The notes beneath the pieces were generated by a model that worked only from the letters and a program-made list of their open reading frames with translations, did no database searches and had not been told where the DNA came from. A DNA stretch of 64,000 nt from Candidatus Omnitrophota bacterium. Its GTDB lineage: Bacteria > Omnitrophota > Gorgyraeia > Zapsychrales > JANLHA01. How positions within the stretch are numbered: the stretch's first letter is position 1; each line of letters starts with the position of its first letter. The DNA is taken from NCBI GenBank assembly GCA_023247795.1, contig JAHFFT010000001.1:2868-66867 (forward strand), given 5' to 3'. The position numbers and the translations under genes are program-made. Shown in pieces: positions 8,896 to 63,997 of this stretch.

Positions 8896-11400
8896 TTATG
8901 CCCCTCTATTCAATTCCCCCAAACCGTTTAAGGCTCCCAAATGTCCTGGAACAATTTCCAAGGCTTTCATAAATCTTTGCTTTGCCGCACTTTTATCGCC
9001 CTTCTTCAAATCACACCAACCCAACGCGGTATAAGGATCGGCATAAATATCCTGCTCTTTATGCAGCTCGAGAAGTTGATTAAAATATCCGGCTGCCTTA
9101 TCATAATTTTTAGTGTAAAAGTAACTCCAGCCTAAATTATTCAATACCACACTCCATTTCAACCATCCGTCTTCCTTCTCCGGTTTCTTCGATAAGAGCG
9201 GTTCCAGTCGATCAATCGCCCCCTTATAATCACCCTGGATAAAATAGATCGCTCCTAAACCTAAAGAAGCGCTTTCCGAGGTTGGCTCCTTCGCTAATAC
9301 TTTTGCAAATGATTCGGAAGCCTTCTTATAAATGCCCTGATAATAATAACTCCATCCTAACCGGCTATAAAGATCAAACCAGCCCTTTTCTGCGGCAAGG
9401 ATCTTTTGAAAATCCTCCGTCATTACATAATCCGGATAAATGTCGATGGCTTTCGCAAAGGCTTCTTTAGCAGGATCCAAGTTTTTAACTTGATACTGAC
9501 TTAACCCCAAACCATAATAAGGATCGACCCAATAGGGGTTGATATCAATGGCCATTTGAAAGCTTTCCGCGGCCTTAGCGTAATCTTTGATCTTATAAGA
9601 ACTCCAAGCTAAAGCGGTCAAGGCGGAATAATTTTTTGGGCTTTCTGCCACGGCTTTCTCTAAATATTCTTTAGCGCCGACATAATCTTTCCTTTGAAAT
9701 AAAATATTGCCTAAACCACTCAGGGCATCGAGATTTTTAGGATATTCCGCCAATAATTCTCGGAATTCTTTCTCCGCACTATCCTCTTCCCCTAAACGAT
9801 AGTAACACCAACCGATCCCTCCCCGCATGGCCAAGGCCTTATCTTGCGGAATATTTTTACCAGCATTTTGCAGGTCATATTTAAATTGCTTCAAGGCCGA
9901 AAAATAATCTCCTTGATAATAATAACTCCAGCCCAAATCGGTCCGCCCATATTTGGCTTGATCAACGGCCAGCAAACCATTTAAGGCATCCGCATAGCTT
10001 GGATTGAGAGCGAGCACGGCTTTAAATTCTGATTCCGCATCATCAACCTTTTTCAACATATAATACGACCATGCCAATCCATCATGCGGATCAATCCAAT
10101 TAGGCTGATTCGTAACCGCCTTTTTAAACTCTTGTGCTGCTTCACTGTATTGTCCCAGTTTATAATCCGCCCACGCCAGGCTTGACTGGGCATCGCTTTG
10201 CACTAAATAGCTGGCAATGGTCCCGGGGATTTGGACATATTCGCTCACCGCCGGTAAAGTCGGATTCTCCTTTAACGATTGCTTAAAATATTTTGCAGCA
10301 TCTTCAAATTGACCCAATTTATAAGCGGCATAACCCAAACCCCTTAAGGTTTCGCCATTCTTTCCTAAAACTTTAGAAGCCTCATCAAATTCTTGGGCCG
10401 CGAGTTGAAAATACCCTTGTTGATAATAACTCCATCCAACCACATTATAGAGATCTTGCCAATCCGTCTGAATTTTGAGAACATTCTTAAATTGTTCATC
10501 GGCGACAAAAGGATAAATGTTGATGGCCGTCGTAAAATACTCCTTTGCCTTCGGGAAATCCTTCAAATCAAAATACGTCCAGGCCAAACCTTTATAAGGT
10601 TCAACCAAATAGGGGTTCAATTGTCGGGCCTTCTCAAACTCTGCTTTTGCCCTCTCAAAATCAGATTTGCGATTATAAATCCACCCGATCTTGCTTTGCA
10701 CATCCGGTTGATAAGCTTGAACATCAAGCGCTTTCTGCAAAAAAACCAAGGCCTGATCAAAATCATTCATCTCAAAATACGAAAAACCTATTCCTTTGAT
10801 GGCATCAAAACTATCCTTTTGCAGACTCAACACTTGCTCAAAATTATGAATGGCTTCCTGGTATTGCTTGTTGAAATGATACGACCATGCCAATCCAGTG
10901 TGAACCCTCCACAATTCTATATTCGGTAAACGTCCACTGGTATCAGCAACAATGGCTTCAAAGATAGTAATCGCCTTGCTATAATTCCCGGCATAATAAT
11001 ATTGCCAAGCACGATTAAAAGGGCGATAACGCCAAGCACTCACTTCTGCCATCCCGTTCAGGGAACCGGGGAAATATGGATAAATTTGTAGACATTTTTT
11101 AAAATTCTCTTCCGCAGTAACAAATTCGCCTTTTTGTAAATAATTCCATCCTAACCCATCATAGGGATCACACCAATCCGTGTGCTCCTGAACTTCTTTC
11201 TGAAATACCCCAATCGCTTGATCATATTGTTTATCATAATAAAGATCCCAAGCCTCTTGGGAAACGGTGGGCTCTTCCTTTTTATTGTTTTCCTCAGCCA
11301 CGGCCTTTTGAACATTGATGAAAACATTGATCAAAACAAAGATCGTCACAACGACAAAACATAACATCGTTTTACAGCTCATTAATTTTTTTAAACGCAT
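8896..11400 (-). CDS. Large TPR-repeat protein (834 aa) with an N-terminal signal/anchor
   Basis: Hydrophobic N-terminus (TMLCFVVVTIFVLINVFINV), then more than 20 TPR-like units with recurring GW(S/C)YY/GLG/A...NP motifs. The plus-strand ORFs inside it are antisense artefacts. Confidence 0.8.
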   Translation of the reverse strand: MRLKKLMSCKTMLCFVVVTIFVLINVFINVQKAVAEENNKKEEPTVSQEAWDLYYDKQYDQAIGVFQKEVQEHTDWCDPYDGLGWNYLQKGEFVTAEENFKKCLQIYPYFPGSLNGMAEVSAWRYRPFNRAWQYYYAGNYSKAITIFEAIVADTSGRLPNIELWRVHTGLAWSYHFNKQYQEAIHNFEQVLSLQKDSFDAIKGIGFSYFEMNDFDQALVFLQKALDVQAYQPDVQSKIGWIYNRKSDFERAKAEFEKARQLNPYLVEPYKGLAWTYFDLKDFPKAKEYFTTAINIYPFVADEQFKNVLKIQTDWQDLYNVVGWSYYQQGYFQLAAQEFDEASKVLGKNGETLRGLGYAAYKLGQFEDAAKYFKQSLKENPTLPAVSEYVQIPGTIASYLVQSDAQSSLAWADYKLGQYSEAAQEFKKAVTNQPNWIDPHDGLAWSYYMLKKVDDAESEFKAVLALNPSYADALNGLLAVDQAKYGRTDLGWSYYYQGDYFSALKQFKYDLQNAGKNIPQDKALAMRGGIGWCYYRLGEEDSAEKEFRELLAEYPKNLDALSGLGNILFQRKDYVGAKEYLEKAVAESPKNYSALTALAWSSYKIKDYAKAAESFQMAIDINPYWVDPYYGLGLSQYQVKNLDPAKEAFAKAIDIYPDYVMTEDFQKILAAEKGWFDLYSRLGWSYYYQGIYKKASESFAKVLAKEPTSESASLGLGAIYFIQGDYKGAIDRLEPLLSKKPEKEDGWLKWSVVLNNLGWSYFYTKNYDKAAGYFNQLLELHKEQDIYADPYTALGWCDLKKGDKSAAKQRFMKALEIVPGHLGALNGLGELNRGA

Positions 11401-16018: not shown

Positions 16019-19000
16019 CTAAAATTCTTGTAAAGACTTAACTCTTTTTGTTTCTTGATGATAGCTCAATTGCTCTTCGTTCGGTGGAACCGTTTTCCCG
16101 ATCAGAGCTGGTAAATTGGTCACAGGCTTGATCTCCATGATGATCGGCAGAAAGCCATCAAATTGTAAATTTTTAATCTGCTCCGGATCAAAATCAAACT
16201 TGATTGCTGGCCCTTCATTTTGAATCATCAGCTCCAAATTTTCCGGATTCAAGTCGATACCACCAACCTCCGATGAAGCATTTTGCGGAGCAATGGTAAT
16301 CGCCGACACCTGTGGATTATTTGTATTACCTAGAAAAAAGGAATCCTTCATCCCCGGAGCTAATACCAAATTTTGGTCTAATAAATCAAGATCATTGCTG
16401 TCTCCGTTTTCTTTCTTAACTTGATTTTTAGCAATGTCCCAGACCCCGCCAAACCCAAAATCGAAAGCCTTGCCAGCCCACCCAGGGTATCGAGCAAAAT
16501 CAATCTGAACAGCATTATCTTCTGCCATAACCGGCTTTCCAGTCTCTGGATCTCTGACCATCACTTTTCCCGTGGGATCAAAATAAAGTCCTAAATCCAA
16601 ATGCCAATTGACAATTTCTTGCGCGGTCTGCCGACTTTCACCGTTTGTTACCGCAAATGCCTTGGATTCAATCAACTGATTGATTTGGGCGGAAGCACTT
16701 TCTGACAAATCATGAGCGCTTTCAGAACGAGGCTTGGCATACCAAGATCTTTGAATCTCACCGGTTTCCGGGTCAAAGAGGGCCATGACCGCCTCCTGCC
16801 TTTTCCATTTGTATTGACCGGTAACGGTCGAATAAGTATCACTGCTGTAATAAAGTTCCATCCGATTATCACGCGAAGCCAAAACATAAATACGGTCGTG
16901 CATAAAAAACGCTTGATGGAACAGAAACAAATTGGGTTTACCTTCGGTTGTATTTTGACGGTTCTGCCTGACATATCTGGCAAATGCCTCTTTTGTGGGA
17001 GCATCCTTCGCGTTGATCACCTTGAATGAGTAATCCCCGCTGTTCACTTCGCCGATGACGCGATCTTCATCCCTGCGCCATTGAGCTTTTTTGTTTTTCT
17101 TGATCAGAAGTCTCTTGACCCGCCCCAATTCAACCGCCTTGGAAAATTTATAGCTCCGATATTTGTAGATCAATTCCGAAATGACGTATTTGAGATCCAC
17201 CACCTTCTCTGCCTTCTCAAATTGATAAACCAAAACGAGGTAATGCGTGATCAAAGCAAGAATATCGGCCTGATCACCCTCAGTTTTTACACCGAGTTCT
17301 TTGTCAACATCACGGATAAAATCCTGATCAATATACTCAGCCAGTTTTAGAATCCCATCTTTATCTTTCCCTAAAAAATATTTTTTCATCTCATCATTAA
17401 CTTCGATCGCCATTATTGTGTTCAACCGTTCTATTCTCCTTTCAAGCTTTAGTATTTCCTCTTGACCAAAATTTTCCTTTAACTGTAATTTTAGTAGCAC
17501 TAATTCATGCCTTCGTTCCGCGTTAGTCATTAATATGCTGCGGACTGGCACTTGAGTAAATTTGTGATACCCATTCGCCGTTAGGACCGGTGCTAAACGA
17601 TTCGCCTGAGCAAAAAAGTCAGCCCGATCTGACGGGTTTGTTGTAAGAACGATATCCAAGGCCAAAGCAATGAGATTGAGAATATTCCGGTAGCGGTCTG
17701 GATCAGATTGAAAAATCTTAGCCAAAGGAAAATCGACATCTAACTTGAAACGATTTCTTTCTTTTTCATCATTTTGGACAACAATCTTTAAAACGTTGCC
17801 GGGGCTGCGCTTTTTTATCGTTTTCTTGATTCGATCTCGATCGATATCCGCTTTCGTGATCTCATTGATCGCCATGGTTCCTTCTGTTCCAGCGGTCCCC
17901 TCGATTTCATCCTCGAATGCTTCAGGAACAGGTACGAGAGGGATATCCGACTTGGATTCTTTATGGCCTTCGACAATGGCAGCAATCGTTTGCTGTTGAA
18001 AATCTGTGAGATCTTCATCAACACCTGGTTTCGGTGTTCGAACAGGAAACCCTTTGCCAATCTCGGCCAAGACGGGTTTCAATTCACTCCATTCCTTAAT
18101 AGGCAATTTAGTAAATCGAGAACTTTCTCTCAATAAAACCAACCGCGAATAAATCCTGCCGACATGGCTTTCTGGTTCCAGTTCATCCAGTTCATGCAGA
18201 TCGATGGCTTCCAGCAACTCCGCGATATCATCCCTCGTTGCCTCAATCCTTTCCAAGTCACTCGCCACCGTCTGGCGAAAATACTCCATGACAACCTCTG
18301 ACGATTCCAAAATTTTTTTCATAGCGAACATCGCTTCTTCATCATCCATTTGATCACGGACCGAATTCATCCCTCTCGCGAAATAGCGAGTACATACCTC
18401 TGGTTCTCTTTCAAATTTCCCCAAAATCTTCGCAATCAACCCCTCACGTAATGCTGCTGCTAATTTTTGCACGTTCACACTGAATTTATTTTCCCTTCGA
18501 ATCATATCAAATGTTATAAGCTGACTGGCCGTAAGCTCTTGCTGACCTTTCCCACGTAAAATCTTGACCGCTTGCGGCAATTGCTTTTGTTGCGTTAGAA
18601 TGACGGCTAAAATCAATCGCTTTTGATCATCGGTCAATTGCGCGCTTTCTTTGATTCGCTTTTTTTCATCCAAATAATCCTGATTGGCATCAGCGACCAG
18701 GAACTTAACCGCGCGTTGCAAATATTCTGGCATTGCCTTGAGCATTTTATTATTTTGTAAAACATATCTTTGGTTTCCAGAATCGGGATCAAAAATTCTT
18801 CCGCAGCGCGTTGCGATGATTTTAAAAGGATACGAATCCCCGACCGAATCGTTATGAGTGGGTTCAAAATCAATCTTGCCCTCATCATCAATTCGACCTT
18901 CCAGCATCGTGGGCGTATACTCACTATGCATCGCCTCGGTTATCAAAACCTTTTCAACGGATTGATGGAACCGGCTTCTTTGATTTATCGCCAAGCTTTG

Positions 19001-22000
19001 AATTTTTTTGTCCGAAAGCGTAAACGCGCTTTTCCACGCAACACCGATGCCATTTTTCGATTTCAAATCTTGAATCTGAAACCGATACCCTTGCTGTTCA
19101 CTGCCCAAAACTTGAACTGAAAAATTCCTTCCCGAAAGCTTATCGTCATTCGCGAATAATAGCTCTGCCCCAGCACCCCTACCAACGATAAATTCCTTAC
19201 CTACGCTAAATGCCCTCACATCCCCAGCTAGTGCTGTGTCAATTGTTTTATCTGGAAACGCCTGTAGGTAGGCACGATCACCCGCAACCCAAAGCCGATA
19301 CCAACCTGTTCCGGCTTGGATCCAAACATCATCAATCAACTCTTGCATTCCCGTATCCAAGACCTTCTCTTCCCTCGTTTTCATATTTCTATCGTCTAAG
19401 ACTTGATCTTTAGTTTTGACCATCCTTTCCCATTCCACGGTGATGGATCTATCTGTATAAGTCCCTGTCTTAACTCGATAATTCTCTGTCCCTGGAATAG
19501 GGTCTACGACGATATAACAATGTTCCGATTGAAGGTTGGGATCATTCGGGAAATAAAGTTCATCGATCTGCTTATTTTTTCCAAAAGCATGGAGCTCTCC
19601 TAAACTTATTTTGTAAACTTTCGATTCGTTTGAGGGCGGACCATTCTTGATGTCATGCTGCAGGACCCGGACCTGGTTGTTCACAACCCGAATACTGTAC
19701 CAAAATTTTCCACCCTCGGGCTGGATCCACTGGACCCTACCGGGCAACAAAACAAATTCAACCGGTGCCGGAGTTTGCGATTCTCCCCGCCTATTGTTCG
19801 TCGGAGCCAAAACAACCGGCTTGCCCGCTTTTGTTTTCATATACCTTGCTGTTGCTCCTACTTTGGGAGCTGAATTAACCACAGCAGCATTGTCCATCGA
19901 TCTTTGAATGCCAATCAGATTGGATAAATTCTGATAGACACGGTGATAAAATCTTGCGTCTTGAGGAAAAAAGTCGGAGTCATAAATAAGACGGTTTGCC
20001 CACCCCAATGATAACCAATCCTTTTTCCGCAATTCGCTCATGATTTCAGCCTTTTCCACGAGACTTAAAACTTTCTCTTGTTTGAAATAATTTAAGGCTG
20101 CGTCATAATCATTTTTTAAAAGCGCCCCTAACAATTTAAAAGTTGCGTCGTTTTCTTTAGAATCACTTTGCATTTCACGCAAATATTGCACCAAATGATC
20201 CGCAGAAACTTGTTGAGGATATCTCTCTTGTAATTTCGCTTTCACGCGATTTTTAACTCGCAAAAAATTTTCGGTCGCATGTTCACCAAGCAAATAAGAA
20301 CGCTGCAACTCAGGTGTTTTCATGAAATTGAGCATTAAAGCATTGTCCACCGTACCAAAATAAGGATGAGCCTCTAGCGCATCCATATAACTACTCATTT
20401 TAGCAACGACTGCATCAAAGTCGTCGAAATCACCAGCGCTATACCCATCCTTCATGAGTGCCTCGGCAATGCCCTCTATCATTCGATCTTCATCAGGATT
20501 TTGAGATTCCACTGCGGTACCGATGGTGCTGACTTTATCTTGACGACCCGCGTTGGAATCAAGCAGTTGCTCCCGGTCCTGCTCGGTATATGCCCCGGTC
20601 CCCGTTCGTTGATCCGCCGTGACCCATTCTGCCGGTTGTTCCAGCAGTCCTAACTGCTCTCTGGCCCGTTTGATTTTGACCCGCCCATTGATTTCACTCA
20701 GCTCGTGCTGTTCGACCGCCTCGGTCATATCGTCGCTGAAACCGAGGACAATCCACTCTCCCCGGACCTTATCGAAATAGTTGATCGCCTTGATCCCGGC
20801 CTTGGCTCCGGTTTTACTGCTCATATGGTTGATCACCCATTTATCAAAAACTTTTCCTAATTCTGTTTCTTTCGCCCCGCGATCAATGCGGATGACCTTG
20901 ACTTTGTAGTTTAAGTCCTTTTGATTGATAACTTGCTGCCCCTCATAATCCAAGGTCTCGCCTGCTGCCACCTGCTGCTCAATCGACGGAGAAGCTGTTG
21001 GCAAAAACCCATTCTGGTCAAGAAGCCCAACGATATGATTCAAAATCTGGTCTTCACTGGCGTTTTCAGGAAGTTTTTTCCCCTTGGCAACGGTGTTCAA
21101 CAAACGAATCATCCGGTTATAATAGGTTACCGGGGTGACAACCGCGGAGGCATTATAAACTTTTTGGTTTTCTAATTGCGCGGAGGTTAAATTCTGAGCT
21201 TCTGATGAGACATCAATGGTGGTGACACCACTAACCTCTGTTCCTTTAAATCCTCCGGAAAAATATTTCCTCGGGATGGAGGCTTGAAGATACGGATCAT
21301 AATCTTCTTTGATGTAGTTATAAACCCCCTGCTTGAAGGCCGCGATATACTGCTCATAAATCTGCTGTTGACCGTCCTTGTCATCTGAATCAACTCCGAC
21401 GACCTTATTTTTATCCACATAAATGCTGTCGAGAATGCTTTCGCGCAACTTCTTTTTGAACCAGGTCGCGAGGATCATGGCGTTGTAAATCTGGCGCAAT
21501 TGGGCAAAATTCTGACCTTCATTGACTTCTTTTTCGATCGTCGGTAAAACGATTTTCTTGACGATGTCTGAAGAAAAAGTACTGACGCTACCAACATCCG
21601 TGTTAGTCAATGACTCCGTCCCTAAATTTTTATTGCCTCGATTGGAATCCAGAGCGAGATAATCTTCTTCCAACATCACCTGCAAATGACTTTCAATCAC
21701 AAAAGCGGTCGCGCCATTTTCATAGACCCGGGCCTTGTCAGGAACAATCCAGACTTTATTGAAGGTATTGATCGGGACGTTGGTGGTACCATATTCCTGA
21801 TAGGCCTTTTCATAAATTTCCTTCCAAAACTGCGCACCCAGCTCTTTTTCCGGGTAGATCAAAGAGGCAGTGATTTGCTTTAACAGATAGTCCTGGGCCA
21901 AAAGATCGCGCCCCATCTCGGTCTGACCAAACTGTTCGGGAATGATCCGATTTTCTTCATAGGGCGACAAATTGACCCACAAGTCCTTTTCCGGGACCGT

Positions 22001-22300
22001 CAGGGTTGCTAAAAAATATTTGATCATCTTTTGCGATTCTTCCTTCAAGGCTTGATCAGACAGCGTTTGGTCCCCAGGTGTTACGATGAAATCAAACCGA
22101 AAAGGGTTATTAGGGAAAACCTTCACCCCCTTTAACAAGGCCGGCGCAAAGGCCTGGCTTAGCCCGACCATCGAGCCTGCCTGCGGAAGATTGAGCGGTT
22201 GAATTTGCGCGAAACCATTCCCGGGGCTGATCAGATTGAAAAAAAAAGTGAAAATAATCAGCAGATTGATACTTCGATATTTTTTGATTTGCTTTGCCAT
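16019..22300 (-). CDS. Giant secreted protein (2093 aa) with FHA-like segments and a conserved ~55-aa C-terminal module
   Basis: A single uninterrupted 6.3-kb ORF with an N-terminal signal peptide (LLIIFTFFFNLISPGNGFA-QI). Internal FHA-like stretches (FIVGRGAGAELLFANDDKLSGRNFSVQVLGSEQQGYRFQIQDLKSKNGIGV). The C-terminal GGIDLNPENLELMIQNEGPAIKFDFDPEQIKNLQFDGFLPIIMEIKPVTNLPALIGK is homologous to the C-terminus of the 60206-63997 protein. Confidence 0.8.
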   Translation of the reverse strand: MAKQIKKYRSINLLIIFTFFFNLISPGNGFAQIQPLNLPQAGSMVGLSQAFAPALLKGVKVFPNNPFRFDFIVTPGDQTLSDQALKEESQKMIKYFLATLTVPEKDLWVNLSPYEENRIIPEQFGQTEMGRDLLAQDYLLKQITASLIYPEKELGAQFWKEIYEKAYQEYGTTNVPINTFNKVWIVPDKARVYENGATAFVIESHLQVMLEEDYLALDSNRGNKNLGTESLTNTDVGSVSTFSSDIVKKIVLPTIEKEVNEGQNFAQLRQIYNAMILATWFKKKLRESILDSIYVDKNKVVGVDSDDKDGQQQIYEQYIAAFKQGVYNYIKEDYDPYLQASIPRKYFSGGFKGTEVSGVTTIDVSSEAQNLTSAQLENQKVYNASAVVTPVTYYNRMIRLLNTVAKGKKLPENASEDQILNHIVGLLDQNGFLPTASPSIEQQVAAGETLDYEGQQVINQKDLNYKVKVIRIDRGAKETELGKVFDKWVINHMSSKTGAKAGIKAINYFDKVRGEWIVLGFSDDMTEAVEQHELSEINGRVKIKRAREQLGLLEQPAEWVTADQRTGTGAYTEQDREQLLDSNAGRQDKVSTIGTAVESQNPDEDRMIEGIAEALMKDGYSAGDFDDFDAVVAKMSSYMDALEAHPYFGTVDNALMLNFMKTPELQRSYLLGEHATENFLRVKNRVKAKLQERYPQQVSADHLVQYLREMQSDSKENDATFKLLGALLKNDYDAALNYFKQEKVLSLVEKAEIMSELRKKDWLSLGWANRLIYDSDFFPQDARFYHRVYQNLSNLIGIQRSMDNAAVVNSAPKVGATARYMKTKAGKPVVLAPTNNRRGESQTPAPVEFVLLPGRVQWIQPEGGKFWYSIRVVNNQVRVLQHDIKNGPPSNESKVYKISLGELHAFGKNKQIDELYFPNDPNLQSEHCYIVVDPIPGTENYRVKTGTYTDRSITVEWERMVKTKDQVLDDRNMKTREEKVLDTGMQELIDDVWIQAGTGWYRLWVAGDRAYLQAFPDKTIDTALAGDVRAFSVGKEFIVGRGAGAELLFANDDKLSGRNFSVQVLGSEQQGYRFQIQDLKSKNGIGVAWKSAFTLSDKKIQSLAINQRSRFHQSVEKVLITEAMHSEYTPTMLEGRIDDEGKIDFEPTHNDSVGDSYPFKIIATRCGRIFDPDSGNQRYVLQNNKMLKAMPEYLQRAVKFLVADANQDYLDEKKRIKESAQLTDDQKRLILAVILTQQKQLPQAVKILRGKGQQELTASQLITFDMIRRENKFSVNVQKLAAALREGLIAKILGKFEREPEVCTRYFARGMNSVRDQMDDEEAMFAMKKILESSEVVMEYFRQTVASDLERIEATRDDIAELLEAIDLHELDELEPESHVGRIYSRLVLLRESSRFTKLPIKEWSELKPVLAEIGKGFPVRTPKPGVDEDLTDFQQQTIAAIVEGHKESKSDIPLVPVPEAFEDEIEGTAGTEGTMAINEITKADIDRDRIKKTIKKRSPGNVLKIVVQNDEKERNRFKLDVDFPLAKIFQSDPDRYRNILNLIALALDIVLTTNPSDRADFFAQANRLAPVLTANGYHKFTQVPVRSILMTNAERRHELVLLKLQLKENFGQEEILKLERRIERLNTIMAIEVNDEMKKYFLGKDKDGILKLAEYIDQDFIRDVDKELGVKTEGDQADILALITHYLVLVYQFEKAEKVVDLKYVISELIYKYRSYKFSKAVELGRVKRLLIKKNKKAQWRRDEDRVIGEVNSGDYSFKVINAKDAPTKEAFARYVRQNRQNTTEGKPNLFLFHQAFFMHDRIYVLASRDNRMELYYSSDTYSTVTGQYKWKRQEAVMALFDPETGEIQRSWYAKPRSESAHDLSESASAQINQLIESKAFAVTNGESRQTAQEIVNWHLDLGLYFDPTGKVMVRDPETGKPVMAEDNAVQIDFARYPGWAGKAFDFGFGGVWDIAKNQVKKENGDSNDLDLLDQNLVLAPGMKDSFFLGNTNNPQVSAITIAPQNASSEVGGIDLNPENLELMIQNEGPAIKFDFDPEQIKNLQFDGFLPIIMEIKPVTNLPALIGKTVPPNEEQLSYHQETKRVKSLQEF

Positions 22301-56367: not shown

Positions 56368-57024
56368 TTACTTCTTTGCAAAATACTTGGCTGCTTTATC
56401 TTTGCCGCCTAGCCCATAAGCCAGGGCAAGAGCAAGCACCACACCGCCAAAAAGAATATAGAACGGGGTGCCGACAAAGATCTCGCCGAACCCAAGTTCG
56501 ATGACCGTTACCTTGATGGCATAGATCGTAATGGCCCATCGAGTTACGCGTTCATAGATCTTTGGCTTGGGAAAACCGACGTGCGTGGTGATGACATAAA
56601 TGACGCTTGCAACCACCTTCGCTATGATTAAGCCCAACGCCAAAGCTAATACGGCTGCGACAACCTGCGGCAAATAAGCCACAGTGCCAGAGATCATGCC
56701 GCCCGACATCGTCACTCCGAGGTGATCAACCGTCATCAAAACAAAGATGACCATAACCACCAAGTGGACCAATGAAGCAACCAGATCACTGAATTTATGC
56801 TTTACCCCACCTTTATGAAGAGCCCCTGACAAGCCAATCTTGTCAGAAAGAATGTCAAACTTGAGCTCTGTCAATAATCGGTGAAAGATAACGCGCAGCA
56901 CTTTAGCCACAAAAATACCGACTAATAGAATTATTAGTGCGCTGACCAAAGTGGGGACGTAACTCGCTACCTTATAGACCATGTCTCGAAACGGTGACAG
57001 TAATAAAGTATCGATTGTAGTCAT
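56368..57024 (-). CDS. Membrane protein with conserved TM-helix repeats (MscS-associated TM_helix type)
   Basis: Start probably at MTTIDTLLL; the ORF track extends to 57081. Repeated hydrophobic helices are separated by K/R-rich loops (ALIILLVGIFVAKVLRVIFHRLL...). Weak family assignment. Confidence 0.45.
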   Translation of the reverse strand: MTTIDTLLLSPFRDMVYKVASYVPTLVSALIILLVGIFVAKVLRVIFHRLLTELKFDILSDKIGLSGALHKGGVKHKFSDLVASLVHLVVMVIFVLMTVDHLGVTMSGGMISGTVAYLPQVVAAVLALALGLIIAKVVASVIYVITTHVGFPKPKIYERVTRWAITIYAIKVTVIELGFGEIFVGTPFYILFGGVVLALALAYGLGGKDKAAKYFAKK

Positions 57025-57456
57025 TTTAATCCCCTCCTTTCTTTTAACCATTGCTGCCTGCATCATCAGCTGTCGTAACAAAAAAGGCCCAGACTTTGAA
57101 TCGATCTGGACCTTAGATATGCGTAAAATCAGTTGGACTGCTATTGTTGCAGCCCGGCCACCATAGAAGTATCCTTAGGTCCGAGGCTTTGCGCCCTTAA
57201 GTTTCCTTAAGTTTGCCTTTCGAGAGTCCTCCCCTACTTTTCTCACCTCTGAGAACCTCTCAATTAGAGCATATCACATTTTGGTGGTTTGACAAGGTGG
57301 CTAGAGGGAATTAGACTAGAATCATAATATATTGAAAATAAATGAGTTATGGATTAGACATTTACAGATCCCTAAAATGAAGCATGCTCGCAACCAAAAT
57401 CGCGCCTCAAGAGAATCAAATGGGAGCCAAGTCCGGATCTGACTCACTTTTTATAC

Positions 57457-57520
57457 TTAAAAACAATCTCAGGTCGTACAGCGGCTGGATATTGATGATG
57501 GAGACAAAACTTGTGTGAAT
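57457..57520 (-). pseudogene. Orphan 3' fragment of the giant-gene C-terminal module (about 20 codons, degenerate)
   Basis: The minus-strand translation FVSIINIQPLYDLRLFLSIK* aligns with ...FVPVIINVQPLYDLLAFLGIK* of the 60206-63997 gene. The DNA (cgtacagcggctggatattgatgatg) matches 60239-60262. No start codon. Confidence 0.55.
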
Positions 57521-57538
57521 AGAAAAACTTCCTCAAAA

Positions 57539-58720
57539 TTATTCATTCAAAGATTGTATCCGTTGATAACAATCAAGAACATTCAGGTAGGAATGAATTG
57601 AAACATCTTCCCTGTTAAATTCATTTTTGCCTCCATAAACGACAGCCCGGCCCAACATATCTTTGCCAGCCAAACGCTTTAGAAAATCAAGGCCTTTAAA
57701 AAATTCCTCATGTATGGTCTGCCCCGCTTTGATTTCGACACTCATAATCCGGCGGGCCTTTTCGATGATCAGGTCCACCTCGCTGCCGTGATTATCCCTA
57801 AAAAAATAAAGCGGCGCCTCTCGCCCCTGCGACCAAAAATATTTCAAGAATTCAATGACCACAAAATTTTCAAACAAGGCACCCCGCAAAGGATCACGGC
57901 TCATCTGAGAAGACTTTTCGATCCCCAGCAAATATGCCGCGAGTCCGGTATCGTAAAAATACATTTTAGGGGCCTTAATGATCCTTTTCTTCCAATTACG
58001 GTAATAAGCTGGAAGCAAAAAAACCACATAGCTCGCTTCCAGAACAGACATCCATTCCTTGATCGTCGTATGCGAAACCCCTAAGTCATTGCTGATACTA
58101 GAGAGGTTAAGTATTTGACCGATCCGCCCGGCGCATAGTTTCAAAAATTTCTGGAATGAAGAAAGGTTCTTGACATTGATGACCTGCCGCACGTCCCGTT
58201 CCACATAGGTCGCGACATAGTCGCGCATCGCGTCGGAAGGGTCAATCTTTTGATCAAAAATCCTGGGGAAAAACCCTGTGTGGACAATGTCATCCGCTGT
58301 ACGCTTTTGGATCAAAGAACGGATTTCCTCCACCGAAAAGGGCAAAAGTTTCAGGACGGCCGTACGGCCGGCCAAAGACTGCCGAATGGACCGCAATAAC
58401 AAAAGGTTCTGACTACCACTGAGAATATACAGACCATTTTTGTTACGTTCATCGACAATCCCCTGAAGATAAGAAAGGATTTCCGGGACCCGTTGGACTT
58501 CATCCAGAATAGCTCCTTCAGGATAACGGCCCAGAAACCCCCTGGGATCCTGCATGGCTAGTTCACGAATATCCGGAATCTCAAAAGAAAGATAAGATTT
58601 TTTGGGGAAAACTTTACGGCACAACGTGGTTTTGCCGGATTGCCTAGGCCCGGTCACCGAAACAACCGGATAATGTCTGGCGGATTCCCTGAGTTTGGCT
58701 TCAAGAATTCTAGTGATCAT
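57539..58720 (-). CDS. AAA+ ATPase, COG1373 family (AAA_14 + DUF4143)
   Basis: Start set at MITRILEAKL; the ORF-track extension to 58864 reads through the orphan repeat. Walker A (VTGPRQSGKTTL); ILDEVQRVPEI (the DEvQ Walker B region); C-terminal DUF4143-like. Confidence 0.75.
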   Translation of the reverse strand: MITRILEAKLRESARHYPVVSVTGPRQSGKTTLCRKVFPKKSYLSFEIPDIRELAMQDPRGFLGRYPEGAILDEVQRVPEILSYLQGIVDERNKNGLYILSGSQNLLLLRSIRQSLAGRTAVLKLLPFSVEEIRSLIQKRTADDIVHTGFFPRIFDQKIDPSDAMRDYVATYVERDVRQVINVKNLSSFQKFLKLCAGRIGQILNLSSISNDLGVSHTTIKEWMSVLEASYVVFLLPAYYRNWKKRIIKAPKMYFYDTGLAAYLLGIEKSSQMSRDPLRGALFENFVVIEFLKYFWSQGREAPLYFFRDNHGSEVDLIIEKARRIMSVEIKAGQTIHEEFFKGLDFLKRLAGKDMLGRAVVYGGKNEFNREDVSIHSYLNVLDCYQRIQSLNE

Positions 58721-58789
58721 AAATAAACCATACCACATCTTGTACAGTTTGCAAGTTAAATATTCAATTAGTACAGATTTGTTCTCAAA

Positions 58790-58910
58790 CCTTAATTCCC
58801 AAAAAGGTCGACAGATCGTAAAGCGGCTGGACATTGATGATGACCGGGACAAAACCTGGAGCATTTTGCAATTGTTTGAGCAGGGCGGGATCGAGATGAA
58901 ATTGGATTTT
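58790..58910 (-). pseudogene. Orphan 3' fragment of the giant-gene C-terminal module (about 40 codons, in frame after a stop)
   Basis: The minus-strand translation IKIQFHLDPALLKQLQNAPGFVPVIINVQPLYDLSTFLGIK* is about 90% identical in both DNA and protein to the last 40 codons plus stop of the 60206-63997 gene (compare 60212-60335). It is preceded by an in-frame TAA and has no start codon. Confidence 0.65.
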
Positions 58911-58976
58911 TATGGAATACACAATTCTTCGGTTGTTTTAAAAATATTATTGACAAAGGCTCCATATTCGTCGAAA

Positions 58977-60161
58977 ATGGAGTCTATGCAATACATATTA
59001 AGACTGACCGAAAACGATATCCAAAACTCTTTACAACGCAATAAAAGTGTTTTATTGTTGGGCGCTCGTCAAACCGGTAAAACAACCCTCATTCAGCGGC
59101 TGCCGGCCGACTTGTCGATTTCCTTTGTCCGTCCGGATGTCAGGCAGCAATACGAAAAAAACTCCACGCTTTTAGTGGGAGAAGTTGAAGCACTAAAGAG
59201 CAAAACGCCCGCGGCTCGCCCCTTGGTTGTTTTAGATGAGGTCCAGCGTGTCCCAGAAATACTCGACATCGTTCAGGATCTCATTGATCGAAAAATAGCC
59301 AACTTTATTTTAACCGGATCCTCCGCAAGAAAATTACGCCATGGATCTCACATCAACCTTCTTCCGGGAAGAGTGACGGCTTTAAAACTAAATCCACTTA
59401 ACATTCAAGAAATTCCGCAAACAGATCTTAAAACGCATTTGCTCTACGGCTCTTTGCCGGCTATTCATCAGGTTACTTCACTGAAAGACAAAGAAATCGA
59501 CCTAAGCTCTTATGTCATCACCTACCTCGAGGAAGAAATCCGTGCCGAAGCGATTGTTAGAAATTTAGGGCCGTTTGCCCGCTTTCTGGAATCAGCGGCT
59601 ATTGAATCAGGAAAGGTCGTGAACTTCAGAAAACTTTCTCAAGAAATCGGTGTTGCCCACACAACCATTGCCTCTTATTATCAAATTTTGGAAGACTGCC
59701 TGATTGTCGAAAAAATAATGCCACTGACAAAAAGCGAAACACGCAAAAAGCTGACCAAAACCCATAAATATATCTTTTTCGATATGGGCGTTCGACGGCT
59801 CACCGCGCATCAAAATACTCAATTGACCAAAGAAATGTGGGGATATCTGTTCGAACAATTCATTGGACTTCAGCTCATTCAACTAGCCGAGCTCTCCGAT
59901 AAAAATATCCAGATCAAATTTTGGCGAGATCCCGATGGCCCGGAAGTAGACTTTATTGTCGACAACAATCATAGCTACTTGCCTCTAGAAGTCAAATGGA
60001 CAAAAAGCCCTACAGCAAAAGACGTTAAACATCTGAAAGTATTCTTAAATGAATATCCCAATGCTAAACAAGCCTATCTCATCTGCCAATGTGAGCGGGA
60101 TGTTGCCCTTGAAAAAAACATTACCGCAATCCCCTGGCAAAAAATAAAAAATATTTTTTAA
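58977..60161 (+). CDS. AAA+ ATPase, COG1373 family (AAA_14 + DUF4143), divergent paralog of 57539-58720
   Basis: Start set at MESMQYILRL; the ORF track starts at 58695 by reading antisense through the orphan repeat. Walker A (LLLGARQTGKTTL), VLDEVQRVPEIL, and a C-terminal DUF4143-like region. Confidence 0.75.
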   Translation: MESMQYILRLTENDIQNSLQRNKSVLLLGARQTGKTTLIQRLPADLSISFVRPDVRQQYEKNSTLLVGEVEALKSKTPAARPLVVLDEVQRVPEILDIVQDLIDRKIANFILTGSSARKLRHGSHINLLPGRVTALKLNPLNIQEIPQTDLKTHLLYGSLPAIHQVTSLKDKEIDLSSYVITYLEEEIRAEAIVRNLGPFARFLESAAIESGKVVNFRKLSQEIGVAHTTIASYYQILEDCLIVEKIMPLTKSETRKKLTKTHKYIFFDMGVRRLTAHQNTQLTKEMWGYLFEQFIGLQLIQLAELSDKNIQIKFWRDPDGPEVDFIVDNNHSYLPLEVKWTKSPTAKDVKHLKVFLNEYPNAKQAYLICQCERDVALEKNITAIPWQKIKNIF

Positions 60162-60205
60162 TAAAATATTCAGCCATACCTATTTTTCCTCAGAATCGGA
60201 TCGCT

Positions 60206-63200
60206 CTATTTAATTCCCAAAAAGGCCAATAAATCGTACAGCGGCTGGACATTGATGATGACGGGGACAAAACCCGGGGCATCTTGCAGTTGCTTGAGTA
60301 GGGCGGGATCAAGATGAAATTGGATTTCACCGTTCTGATTTACTTTCAGGTTCATTTTGTTAGGATCGAAATCAATACCACCAAGCTGATCAGGACGATC
60401 CGACATCTCCGGTGCTGCGTCCTCACCTAACATCAACCGATCCGACGCTCCTCCGCCATTGGGCTTCTGATTTTGTAAACTGTCCTCTGCATTACTTTGC
60501 ACTTCTCTAATTTTAGCTTCAATGCGATTGACCGCGTCAGGGTACAATTTACCTTCAACGAAATCGGCCTCATTCAAAGGAACCCAATATTTCGCTTCAA
60601 TCTTCTCTATCCCAACACCGATTAAATCATTGGAATGGTTTTCAAAATGTTCACGCATCAATGCGAACGCATCGGCTGTAGATAAATATTTTATCATTTT
60701 AATAAAATCCACACTGCTGTTTATCGCAGCAACTTGCTTAGTTAGTCTTTCCTCGATATCCAATTCCATTAATTCTGTCTTGTCATCCAAGGTTGGCGTA
60801 TACTCCCCTAATTTTTGAATATATATTGTATGTTCTTTCCCTTCCTCAATGTCACAAGAATAGCCAATGTTGCGCAAAATAATTGATAATATTTCTTTAT
60901 CCTTATATTCACTGTCAAATAAAATGAACCAACCATCATTCTCAAGGACACGCATAACCTCTTTTAAGACCACCATAAAATCTTTGATCGAAATAAAATA
61001 TACCATCACAAAAGACTCGTTGATAATGTCTATGGACTGATTACTAAATGGTAGCCGACGGAGATCACCATTGACAAGCTGCACACCTGGCAACGATTGT
61101 TTAGGATCGATATCCATATCAATGCCTATCCCTTCTACTTGATCACCTAATTCTTTCCTAAGTTCGACCAACGCCCTGCCTTCTGGACCAGAACCCAAAT
61201 CTAAAACCCGCAATTTACCTGGCGCCTTTCGCGCCAGATGGTCTTTGATCAGCTCCAAATGTTTTAGCAAATAATCCGGTCTATTACTATCACGGGCATA
61301 TTTCTGATGAAACACCTCCCACAAAAAAATCTCGTCTTTCTCAAGAGTCCCCAATTCTTTCAGACGATTTATTAATCTTCCCACAATCTTACCTTGCAAA
61401 AGTTCTTGCATATTAAACTTTCTAAAATATTGGACCATAATCATGCCAAGATGTTCTGGGATTGGCTTTTGAATTCCACTGAAACGAAGCCATCCTTCGT
61501 TTAACAGTCGCACTTTTTCATCCATGCTCAAAGACTCCTCCCCCAATTTAACACTCAAAATTTCTGCGAATTTTTCAACATCATCTCCGGTCTCATTCAA
61601 TATTCCCTGAAATATATCCTGACCAAGCATTAGACGATCCGCTGTTTCTACAGTAGCAGACGGCTCCGCCAAATCCCTCATCGCCATTTCATCTAATATT
61701 TCAATAGAAGGATTCTTTGCCATCCTGATCTGCTCCGGCTCTAAAACCGCGATATGAATATTCCTACTCCCAAACATAACCGCATCTTCATCTTGCAGCT
61801 CTCTCAATCCTGTAAAAAATAAATTATCGTATGCTTTTCCCAAAAATTCTGTGACATTGACATATTCAGGATGCCGTTCAATGACATTCAAAGGTTTTCT
61901 GACATTCAAAAAAGCAGACATTAAAATCTTCTTTACTGTATTAGGGACATATAATTGCTCTCCATTAATTTTTATAAGATGACAATTAATTTTATTTGGT
62001 GCTAATCCATCAAATAAATCAGCAAGCTCTGATTGAACAAACAAATTCTTTCCATCAAAAACTACGATTCCAGGTTTCTTTGTAAACGATACCCGATCCA
62101 GATTCTCTGCGTTTTCGATAAATTCATTCCATTTTTTAAACACTGCAGGCGTATCGGTAAGATTAAACTTTTCTTTTAGCAGAGATAACATGCTTTTTAA
62201 AAATTTAAATCTAAAATAGCTAAATTCATTCACAACAAAATCTCGATCTGAAGAGAAATAAAATGCATGTCTTTCACCAAAATCAAAATTCCTGCGCGCA
62301 TTTTTATCAAATTCATTAAATTCCCTGCCAGTTCCATGATAAAAAATTTTGGGCTCACCGGTTTCGGCATCAATCATTTTCGAGGCTAATTCGGGATGAT
62401 TTATCCAATCTCCAAACCATGCGATAAAATCAGGATCTCTCACTTGTAAAAAATGTAGGAGCCCAAGTTTAGAGGGTTTGCCATTTGGCGCTTTCAATTC
62501 AACCACTTTTCCATCTTGAATTTTAATGTTTCCATTCAAAACTTCTCTATTAAAAATCTGCTTATAAATTTCTATATCAATATGATCATCATATCTTTCT
62601 GTCAATGTTGACAACATCAATCGATCAAATCGCCCAACTTCATCCGCTGTTTCTACAGCGGCAGGCGGCTCCGCCAGATCCCTCATCGCTTGATTGCGCT
62701 CGGTGATCTGCTGATCGAGATCAGCGCTGCTACGCATCTCGATTCGATAGACCATTGCTTGCTCGCTTATCATCTCTTCAACCACTTTTTGGAATAAAAC
62801 CGCTGTCTCCGGCGAAGAATGGATGACCCTTCTGTAAATCTCCCTCTGATTTTTATCATTAATCCGCCAATAGGAAACATATCTCCTTATGAACTCTTCC
62901 ATTGATAAATCCAAAGGAACCCACCCCCATTCCGATTCCGGCAATTGCCTGATGAACGCGATCGTCGCTGCCGGTAAATTCAATCGCCGCGGCAGAACCT
63001 CATTAAAAATGCTGTCGCGGGACGGACTTTCAACGCCAATGGTATCCGCAAATCGATCCAGATGGTATAAACGAAACAGCAAGGCTCCAAGATGATCATC
63101 TCTCTCTTTCATCAGCGCCCTTTCCACAGCAAAATCAAAAAATTCTGCATTCGCAACATTGATTCTCTGGGCAACAAACAGCTCTTTCATAATTTTTTGA

Positions 63201-63997
63201 TGACCTTTTCCAGCAAGTGATTGGTACACCTCCCAAAGCAATCGTACCTGCTGTTTTTCGTTCAAATGTCTTAAAGGGATAAGTTGCTGAAGTCGTCTCG
63301 CCAGTTCCTCAAAATTCCTTGCCGTCATAATTGGATAAATCAATGTGGATGAAGACAGCCCCATCAATTCCGCGATCTTTGTATAAGCCCTTATCAGATC
63401 TCGATAATCTTTTGCCTTTTTAAAAAGTATTTTTTTTCGCGTGTAAATTAAGCTATACGGTGAGACGCTGCTCAAATCGCGATTCTCCAATGCATAAGCA
63501 ATGATTTCATCTTTAAAACGTTTAAAGGCATCGAATTCCGCGTCAAACATCTCAGGAGTTTGATTTGGATTGACATTGATTTTCCTTAAAACATTTTTTC
63601 TAAAAAAATAATTGTGAAGTTCATGATGAAATTCGTGTCTTGAGGTACTGTCGTCTTTAAAAATTTTGGTTTCTTGCAAGCTTTTGGCTAATTTGGGCCT
63701 TGGTAATAGCATAAACCCCACATCTCTGCTATTACTGCTCATAAAACAAACAGCCACTCCATTAAAAATAAATAATTTTTGATCACGGAGCAATTCAAAA
63801 AAAGGATCTTCAACTTCCAGCATAAACACACCCGGTTTGATTTCGATCAAAACTCCAGCTTTCCGATTTGCTTGGACGTCGCTCGGGCCAATCTGATATT
63901 GTTTAATGAACTCTAAAACCTGTTTCAAATCTTCCGCAATCTTCTTTGCTCCCCTATTGAAACCATTTGCAATGATAGCAACTGACAGAAAATACAA
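60206..63997 (-). CDS. Giant modular protein (more than 1263 aa, N-terminus beyond the window) with an embedded class-I SAM methyltransferase domain and the shared C-terminal module
   Basis: The ORF is open to the window edge. The MTase domain lies at about 60911-61210 (RVLDLGSGPEG motif I; GIDMD; LPFSNQSIDII; LKEVMRVLENDGWFILFD). A thrice-repeated linker motif reads (ETAD..)DRLML. The C-terminal GGIDFDPNKMNLKVNQNGEIQFHLDPALLKQLQDAPGFVPVIINVQPLYDLLAFLGIK is homologous to the C-terminus of the 2093-aa protein. Confidence 0.75.
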   Translation of the reverse strand: MYFLSVAIIANGFNRGAKKIAEDLKQVLEFIKQYQIGPSDVQANRKAGVLIEIKPGVFMLEVEDPFFELLRDQKLFIFNGVAVCFMSSNSRDVGFMLLPRPKLAKSLQETKIFKDDSTSRHEFHHELHNYFFRKNVLRKINVNPNQTPEMFDAEFDAFKRFKDEIIAYALENRDLSSVSPYSLIYTRKKILFKKAKDYRDLIRAYTKIAELMGLSSSTLIYPIMTARNFEELARRLQQLIPLRHLNEKQQVRLLWEVYQSLAGKGHQKIMKELFVAQRINVANAEFFDFAVERALMKERDDHLGALLFRLYHLDRFADTIGVESPSRDSIFNEVLPRRLNLPAATIAFIRQLPESEWGWVPLDLSMEEFIRRYVSYWRINDKNQREIYRRVIHSSPETAVLFQKVVEEMISEQAMVYRIEMRSSADLDQQITERNQAMRDLAEPPAAVETADEVGRFDRLMLSTLTERYDDHIDIEIYKQIFNREVLNGNIKIQDGKVVELKAPNGKPSKLGLLHFLQVRDPDFIAWFGDWINHPELASKMIDAETGEPKIFYHGTGREFNEFDKNARRNFDFGERHAFYFSSDRDFVVNEFSYFRFKFLKSMLSLLKEKFNLTDTPAVFKKWNEFIENAENLDRVSFTKKPGIVVFDGKNLFVQSELADLFDGLAPNKINCHLIKINGEQLYVPNTVKKILMSAFLNVRKPLNVIERHPEYVNVTEFLGKAYDNLFFTGLRELQDEDAVMFGSRNIHIAVLEPEQIRMAKNPSIEILDEMAMRDLAEPSATVETADRLMLGQDIFQGILNETGDDVEKFAEILSVKLGEESLSMDEKVRLLNEGWLRFSGIQKPIPEHLGMIMVQYFRKFNMQELLQGKIVGRLINRLKELGTLEKDEIFLWEVFHQKYARDSNRPDYLLKHLELIKDHLARKAPGKLRVLDLGSGPEGRALVELRKELGDQVEGIGIDMDIDPKQSLPGVQLVNGDLRRLPFSNQSIDIINESFVMVYFISIKDFMVVLKEVMRVLENDGWFILFDSEYKDKEILSIILRNIGYSCDIEEGKEHTIYIQKLGEYTPTLDDKTELMELDIEERLTKQVAAINSSVDFIKMIKYLSTADAFALMREHFENHSNDLIGVGIEKIEAKYWVPLNEADFVEGKLYPDAVNRIEAKIREVQSNAEDSLQNQKPNGGGASDRLMLGEDAAPEMSDRPDQLGGIDFDPNKMNLKVNQNGEIQFHLDPALLKQLQDAPGFVPVIINVQPLYDLLAFLGIK

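Follow-up and report, generated by a model that had tools for sequence, protein, structure and literature searches.

Why does the 3' end of one large gene recur twice beyond the gene itself, in the same orientation, with an ATPase gene between each copy and the next? The question is raised by a stretch of 64,000 nucleotides from a Candidatus Omnitrophota bacterium (assembly GCA_023247795.1, contig JAHFFT010000001.1, positions 2,868 to 66,867 of the forward strand), called the window throughout. The large gene (60206-63997, minus strand, recognized from the list of open reading frames, or ORFs, and from Pfam) runs off the end of the window, and 1263 of its codons are seen. Its last 39 codons (IQFHLD...FLGIK; 60209-60325, minus strand), followed by the stop TAG at 60206-60208, are designated copy A. 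Copies B and C are displaced pieces of the same gene end. What recurs is the latter half of an unannotated C-terminal domain of about 65 residues, here called the module. ATPase 1, on the plus strand, lies between A and B, and ATPase 2, on the minus strand, lies between B and C. The explanation we favour, with about an even chance of being the right one, is that copies B and C are displaced 3' ends left by the successive arrival of two PDC-S01/COG1373 cassettes at the end of the large gene.

Three copies of one gene end

Copies A and B were delimited by blastn, a repeat search and codon comparison, and copy C by blastn, a profile and codon comparison. An earlier interpretation of this DNA from its letters alone (the sequence-only reading) had reported a 120-bp copy of the gene's 3' end, about 90% identical, at 58790-58910. 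The copy is found at 58792-58909, where it matches 60210-60327 with 89% identity over 118 nt (E 1e-39). The shorter, more degenerate copy of that reading is located at 57449-57513 (minus strand); here 57474-57510 matches 60234-60273 in copy A at 87.5% over 40 nt (E 1e-7), and 57470-57513 matches 58812-58858 in copy B at 83% over 47 nt (E 1e-9). All three copies share one sense, that of the minus-strand large gene, as had also been read, and the comparisons support the fragments as genuine displaced 3' ends in that orientation. A second public assembly, ERZ27297570, has contigs with identical gene order and spacing, so the arrangement is not a misassembly.

Copy B (58785-58909, minus strand) holds 39 intact codons (58791-58907), then an extra codon, GTT, and the stop TGA; its protein reading is IQFHLDPALLKQLQNAPGFVPVIINVQPLYDLSTFLGIKV*. 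Copy C is the older, degraded gene end. About 21 of its codons remain (..FVSIINIQPLYDLRLFLSIK..); 3 nt have been deleted within the conserved GFVPVI motif, and the stop has gone. The stop codon and the 2-3 nt beyond it, once taken to be shared, are not: copy A ends ..AAA TAG, copy B ends ..AAG GTT TGA, and C has no stop. Past the stops of the copies, weak similarity (GATCCG..CT) runs on for 15-20 nt.

The copies had also been described as lacking a start codon, a statement that fails for B, where an in-frame GTG at 58922 gives a mechanical 45-aa ORF (58785-58922). Copy B might then be a real small gene, encoding a 45-aa peptide of the module's second half, under selection and perhaps co-transcribed with ATPase 2. 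Its frame is intact from the GTG onward, its signature of purifying selection is strong, gene calls in other assemblies include small module-only ORFs (P0001-P0008), and a promoter-like match lies upstream on the minus strand. That match, however, mirrors the ATPase 1 palindrome described below. The ORF has no convincing ribosome-binding site and lacks the module's first conserved block (GGIDL), the small ORFs elsewhere stand on short or frameshift-prone contigs, such as nanopore contig L001, and no orthologous small gene was found beside any other ATPase. A small gene at B is hardly credible.

Over the 39 codons, A and B differ at 14 nucleotides, of which 11 are synonymous and 3 non-synonymous, with no stop and no indel. 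When B is simulated as a copy drifting neutrally after duplication, about 9 of the 14 differences are expected in non-synonymous codons, a stop arises in B in 32% of runs, and the probability of 3 or fewer non-synonymous differences is about 0.001. This synonymous bias indicates that A and B diverged while both encoded a working module. To judge by its codons, copy B was a working gene end until recently and not the decaying duplicate of the present gene end for which it had been taken.

The same figures bear on the idea that each insertion resembled transposition and duplicated the gene end identically as its target site, the outer copies having simply decayed since. Copy C does look decayed. 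In the ATPase family at large, near-perfect repeats occur (64 nt at 98% identity in locus L106, 30 identical nt in L083), and the older pairs in L089 and L148 carry frameshifts and mostly non-synonymous change, as decay predicts. For A and B themselves the idea is rejected by 3 non-synonymous differences where about 9 are expected, with no stop and no indel (P~0.001). Repeat lengths in the family vary from 37 to 242 nt, and terminal inverted repeats and a transposase were not found. Target-site duplication is accordingly very unlikely for this locus.

The module cores of A and B are 87% identical in DNA, compared with a median of 73.5% and a 95th percentile of 81% for within-genome paralogue pairs. 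The sole within-genome module pair closer than A and B consists of adjacent tandem paralogues in L038, at 94%. These values enter on both sides of the main rival explanation, by which two tandem module-bearing genes lost their bodies to deletion and survive only as their last pieces, B and C, with the ATPases lying, or having landed, in the gaps and no duplication involved. Tandem arrays of module genes are common (L024, L038, L046, L064, L070), the L038 pair is above A and B in identity, and loss of gene bodies accounts directly for a divergence confined to synonymous sites. Collapsed or orphan module genes free of any ATPase exist as well; the breakpoint in L061 almost equals that of B, and L027 and L025 carry an orphan module directly behind a full gene. 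Against this, the A/B identity is far above that of typical within-genome pairs, two independent multi-kb deletions are needed, each ending beside an intact ATPase cassette, and repeats of single-copy genes (an ABC-2 permease, a thiolase-like gene) that flank ATPases elsewhere are left unexplained. We regard deletion of tandem paralogues as a real possibility, though on balance an unlikely one.

If cassettes arrived, as we favour, the ATPase 2 cassette would have come first and stranded the older, degraded copy C; the ATPase 1 cassette would have come later and stranded copy B, the younger remnant. The intact end A would be the one now joined to the large gene. The likely route would be recombination between incoming DNA and the resident gene, mediated by a module copy that had diverged yet still functioned, either an imported allele or a close paralogue. 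Because the A/B differences are nearly all synonymous, the event that stranded B would have joined two diverged functional copies and would not have been one of copying and decay. The ATPase-nuclease itself may or may not drive the move. The fraction of G+C at third codon positions (GC3) is 0.43 in ATPase 1 and 0.38 in the large gene, against 0.52-0.57 in neighbouring housekeeping genes, and 0.50, near the housekeeping level, in ATPase 2. The values fit ATPase 1 as the later arrival, and a more recent origin of both the large gene and ATPase 1 is consistent with them. A terminator-like hairpin directly 3' of copy C (57424-57445, minus strand, from a consensus scan only) probably once terminated the large gene and now stands behind ATPase 2.

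Some integrative elements, for example e14 and phage 21 in the icd gene of E. coli, replace the end of the gene into which they insert. As there, direct repeats of the target gene's end bracket the insert in the window and the large gene stays intact: the insert supplies or leaves an intact gene end, and the old 3' end is stranded beyond it in equal orientation. Also alike, the two ends differ mainly at synonymous sites, both having been functional. Unlike those elements, the window has no integrase or recombinase between the repeats, and the insert consists of one 1.2-kb gene plus promoter; in the ATPase family the repeats differ in length by locus (37-242 nt) and the targets are unrelated genes. 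The case is best filed as gene-end displacement by inserted DNA, in a new form.

A different comparison, with the orphan modules downstream of Rhs and contact-dependent inhibition (CDI) polymorphic toxin genes, had been drawn in the sequence-only reading. The two share truncated, start-less copies of a big gene's end, downstream and in equal orientation. Toxin orphans, however, retain a variable toxin tip together with an immunity gene, and a short remnant of conserved core that serves recombination, whereas the window keeps only the conserved terminal module. An orphan array in the Rhs style was rejected: orphans B and C carry no variable toxin domain and are followed by no immunity gene, and the intervening genes are PDC-S01 ATPases.

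The ATPase gene as a unit

ATPase 1 (58986-60161, plus strand, 391 aa) has an AAA_14 domain, a winged-helix region and a DUF4143 domain of the PD-(D/E)XK type, and ATPase 2 (57539-58720, minus strand, 393 aa) has AAA_14 and DUF4143. The assignments come from Pfam and PADLOC, and for ATPase 1 also from invariant residues. Pfam scores for AAA_14 and DUF4143 are 77.1 and 102 bits in ATPase 1 and 92.8 and 173.8 bits in ATPase 2, above gathering cut-offs of 27 and 28.1. The Walker A and B motifs read GARQTGKTT and VVLDEVQ in ATPase 1 and GPRQSGKTT and AILDEVQ in ATPase 2, and their defining residues are invariant in 27 homologues. The PD-(D/E)XK signature reads PEVDFIV...LEVKW in ATPase 1 and SEVDLII...VEIKA in ATPase 2; E323, D325, E338 and K340 are invariant, and DUF4143 is classed in the PD-(D/E)XK family (PMC3424549). 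The two proteins are 30% identical and are therefore not recent duplicates of each other. Two paralogous COG1373 ATPases between the copies had been recognized from sequence alone, and that identification stands; the start then given for ATPase 1, 58977, most likely does not.

Both proteins match the PADLOC profile PDC-S01 (E 8.1e-65 for ATPase 1, 6e-105 for ATPase 2). PDC-S01 is a single-gene candidate defence system of ATPase plus PD-(D/E)XK architecture, defined by its embedding in defence islands; it reportedly ranks fourth in abundance among candidate defence genes of prokaryotes, its antiviral activity is still unvalidated, and its genes number tens of thousands across bacteria and archaea, with about 39,000 loci in complete genomes, their role and spread not known (PMC12988326). 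In profile and architecture (COG1373; AAA_14 plus DUF4143) both window genes conform, and both are candidate anti-phage genes by this homology. Unlike the defining cases, they are surrounded by housekeeping genes, where a large effector-like gene ends, and not by a defence island.

More than 6300 relatives of ATPase 1 are found at E<1e-30, mostly 391-396 aa long; the closest are 60-68% identical and largely from Omnitrophota. One public call, P0009, gives ATPase 1 as 473 aa by reading antisense through copy B, which, beside a family length of 391-396 aa, makes it an over-extension. The earlier view that the N-terminal ORF extensions of both ATPases are artefacts is thereby borne out. Exact-sequence look-ups of both ATPases in public proteins return no match because public gene calls use over-long starts. 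No solved homologue of ATPase 1 was found by sequence, and a fold search with its model gave, apart from a Card1-like nuclease protein with a low TM-score, nothing but generic AAA+ and STAND folds. Relatives occur on 326 plasmid records; relatives of ATPase 1 were found in none of 2.9 million viral contigs. From metagenomes, only one relative of the ATPase 2 type was obtained, at L106.

A predicted promoter/operator precedes ATPase 1 (58950-58982, plus strand), with TTGACA at 58950-58955 and a near-palindrome, CTCCATATTCGTCGAAAATGGAG, at 58960-58982 that includes the -10-like GAAAAT. It is conserved in the family: TTGACA and a palindrome, CTCCATTTTCGGCGAAAATGGAG, that holds the -10 element lie upstream of almost all sampled relatives of ATPase 1, with the start codon shortly after. 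Across the family (L083-L122; 58950-58988 in the window) the operator is a perfect palindrome overlapping the -10 element, and the start codon is about 7 nt past the -10. ATG 58977 lies inside the palindrome, and in several relatives the palindrome ATG stands directly before a stop, so the start of ATPase 1 in the window is most likely ATG 58986 (MQYILRL). The promoter layout suggests that transcripts of the ATPase 1 family are probably leaderless and self-regulated, that is, self-repressed. The 40-nt junction segment between copy B and this promoter (58910-58949), delimited by sequence comparison, has no homologue in any locus examined.

The boundaries of similarity between relatives coincide with this promoter and the ORF. 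In gene pairs 82-96% identical in DNA, similarity begins 26-50 nt before the gene and ends 0-38 nt after it, and the flanks are unrelated. Finished Agrobacterium and Rhizobium plasmids provide a 1361-nt ATPase unit, 92.6% identical in two unrelated contexts and with ends sharp to the nucleotide (L176 2838-4198 and L177 3001-4361). Its ends are CCCATCGGG ... TGGAACT, it has its own palindrome, ATGCATTTCAAATGCAT, and at one end it directly adjoins the pyc stop codon. No clean empty site was found for the Agrobacterium pAt locus; its relatives have IS66 or ISNCY elements into which the two flanks lead, which marks the locus as a variable spot. Lone copies on the opposite strand also interrupt operons. 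One, in L083, lies within a polysaccharide operon; another, ATPase 2-like and without a flanking repeat, lies between araD and araA of the arabinose operon on Emticicia oligotrophica plasmid pEMTOL02 (L172 2495-3661). Each 1.3-1.4-kb unit in the window carries only the ATPase ORF. From these boundaries, the family behaves as a movable gene whose unit is the promoter plus the ORF.

Flank-against-flank comparison of 58 sampled ATPase 1-family loci, with mismatched flank pairs and size-matched control genes as nulls, shows an excess of flanking direct repeats. Eight of the 58 loci have such repeats, 37-242 nt long and 84-98% identical (53-308 bits), compared with none of 149 mismatched pairs (maximum 28 bits) and 3 of 196 control genes at >=40 bits, those mostly tandem paralogues. 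The excess of loci over control genes has a Fisher P of 0.008 to 0.0005. The L083 homologue, 63% identical to ATPase 1, has a 37-nt repeat, perfect over 30 nt: the neighbouring ABC-2 permease gene contributes its 3' end, and a duplicate of that end overlies the start of the next gene, in the same geometry as in the window. Elsewhere the repeat represents a 3' end, thiolase-like in L089 and that of a small gene in L149, or the 5' third of a HAD-like gene (L118). At L106 the repeat (118-181 and 1876-1939; 64 nt, 98% identical) is made up of the promoter of an adjacent ATPase 2-like gene together with the first four codons of that gene; an ATPase 1-type gene stands directly upstream of an ATPase 2-type gene, a second case of both types side by side. 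At L161 the upstream copy is 94.5% identical to an allele in another contig and 84% to its own partner, over short segments, which hints that repeat pairs can come from two alleles.

Repeated insertion at the gene's 3' end, as proposed in the sequence-only reading, thus fits the family-wide unit boundaries and flanking repeats. That reading had further raised mobility of an ATPase cassette targeted to the module; the mobility agrees with the family evidence and the targeting does not. No ATPase relative lies within 10 kb of any of 79 other module loci, and the module, which the reading had proposed seeking beside other COG1373 genes, is absent from all 88 ATPase loci (515 kb in all). With no association at these 79 module and 88 ATPase loci, module-specific targeting by the ATPases was rejected. 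The repeats flanking other family members derive from unrelated genes, which likewise means that the module is not a specific target. Overall, the earlier interpretation was half right.

The conserved unit invites a stronger proposal, that COG1373/PDC-S01 genes are autonomous single-gene mobile elements. Their own AAA ATPase, DNA-binding region and PD-(D/E)XK nuclease would break the target and insert the unit, often at gene 3' ends, leaving long, variable target duplications instead of transposon ends. If that were true, the window would record two such insertion events at one gene end. Searches for the usual marks of a mobile element gave nothing. The ORF list and Pfam show no tyrosine or serine recombinase within the window inserts. 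The best inverted match at unit ends averages 6.4, compared with 6.3 in mismatched controls, and there are no terminal inverted repeats at the sharp ends of the plasmid copies. No fixed-length target-site duplication is found; repeats are 37-242 nt where present and are absent in most loci. We consider autonomous mobility rather improbable.

Several observations also weigh against the displacement of gene ends by arriving cassettes, the explanation we favour. Recombinase, terminal inverted repeats and fixed-length target duplication were all not found, so no mechanism is demonstrated. No empty site was found; for the flanking 389-aa gene, even the best-matching relatives reach only 47% identity and lack synteny. 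Flanking repeats occur in only 14% of the sampled ATPase 1-family loci and in none of eight plasmid loci checked, among them six with ATPase 2-like genes. The loci with repeats form a mixed set: L097 and L118 may represent neighbouring paralogues, both repeat copies at L149 are fragments, and the repeat at L148 is internal. Orphan or collapsed module genes occur without any ATPase in L061, L027 and L025. Two hits at one gene end, with no other association of ATPase and module, are an unexplained coincidence if the ATPases are untargeted.

The C-terminal module and the surroundings of the locus

The module is defined by profile A2 as two conserved blocks, GGID[LF], then I.FhLDP..LQNAPGFVPVIINIQP..L..FLG, with its end no more than about 25 residues from the C-terminus. 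Copy A matches the profile over positions 5-68 (101.6 bits), B over 29-68 only (83.7 bits) and C over 52-70 only (21.3 bits). No Pfam or NCBIfam model matches it. A scan of genomes, one for each species, gave at least 155 copies, all in metagenome-assembled genomes of Candidatus Omnitrophota, some labelled 'uncultured Planctomycetales', with many copies per genome. Carriers in the 79 fetched module loci, L003-L081, are diverse and mostly 1000-3000 aa long; the match ends within about 25 residues of the C-terminus in these loci, in all 90 locus hits, and in all of the 150 profile matches listed from an exhaustive profile search. That search returned 4320 clusters at 50% identity, 1620 of them at E<1e-10. 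A word-indexed protein search with the module found only 8 short proteins, a misleading result compared with the genome scan and the exhaustive search.

On the strength of these profile matches, the module is a large undescribed C-terminal domain family that ends thousands of big Omnitrophota proteins. The literature on Omnitrophota giant genes, as far as it was searchable, has no mention of it. Like the C-terminal sorting and secretion domains of type IX substrates or PEP-CTERM proteins, the module is short, conserved and C-terminal, and its carriers are diverse, large and many per genome; unlike them, it has no sequence match to Pfam or NCBIfam models. It may be an export or sorting signal of giant effector-like proteins in Omnitrophota. 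Its AlphaFold model is a small hairpin-helix unit (pLDDT 76), too small and of too modest confidence for a structure search.

Three other module loci are described here for their own sake. At L061 a collapsed gene (9704-10192) joins a signal peptide and a conserved N-terminal stretch straight to the second half of the module; it breaks no more than 2-3 codons away from the copy B breakpoint, and a VapC-like gene lies just upstream. At L002 (7857-8637) a TacA/TacT-type pair of antitoxin and acetyltransferase toxin lies between a module-less ORF of more than 2500 aa and a 350-aa ORF, the latter followed by a module-only ORF; either a frameshift or a further insertion close to the end of a module gene could account for this. 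At L079 (4402-7006) an orphan full-length module ORF (5563-5928, plus strand) lies between tandem minus-strand paralogues 72.5% identical in DNA, and so sits inside the tandem duplication of an unrelated gene.

In the window, the large gene encodes ART-PolyVal and SAM-methyltransferase domains (Pfam), then the module. The module occupies 60209-60400 (minus strand), its profile match covers residues 1202-1264, 0 residues from the end, and the protein ends ...GGIDFDPNKMNLKVNQNGEIQFHLDPALLKQLQDAPGFVPVIINVQPLYDLLAFLGIK*. A linker-like motif occurs three times: AMRDLAEPxAxVETAD..RLML, and SDRLMLGED immediately ahead of the module. These repeats lie between the ART-PolyVal and methyltransferase parts and could be processing sites. 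The convergent stops of the large gene and ATPase 1 are separated by a 44-nt spacer (60162-60205), delimited on the sequence. A second carrier, the gene at 16019-22300, has its module at 16097-16345 (minus strand). The sequence-only reading had proposed comparing its 3' end with the repeats; the two gene ends have no DNA similarity by blastn, and their modules share only 32% protein identity.

On the far side of the copies, the first conserved gene past the insert region encodes an MscS-like membrane protein (56368-57063, minus strand; Pfam MS_channel_1st_1; 231 aa in the public call). Its leader contains a c-di-GMP-I riboswitch aptamer (57145-57227, minus strand; Rfam RF01051), with a full-length match to model positions 1-87 of 87 at 73.4 bits (E 1e-13), compared with a gathering score of 35. 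A promoter-like site (57268-57295) and a terminator-like stem beside the riboswitch (57135-57155), both on the minus strand, come from a consensus scan only. With these features and the hairpin behind copy C, the interval 57082-57538 is not the empty stretch for which it had been taken.

Meaning for the two families

The picture offered here for PDC-S01 is of a sharp-bounded unit that would land beside or inside genes, with a measurable fraction of cases leaving duplicated pieces of a neighbour. In the literature searchable here, no description was found of flanking repeats and sharp boundaries for these genes. If the picture holds in complete genomes, it would point to a recombinase-free installation of defence genes, or to a family of selfish mobile nuclease genes. 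The locus is valuable mainly for the lead it gives on the entry of PDC-S01 genes, a very abundant group, into genomes. It has also brought out an unannotated C-terminal domain on thousands of large Omnitrophota proteins.

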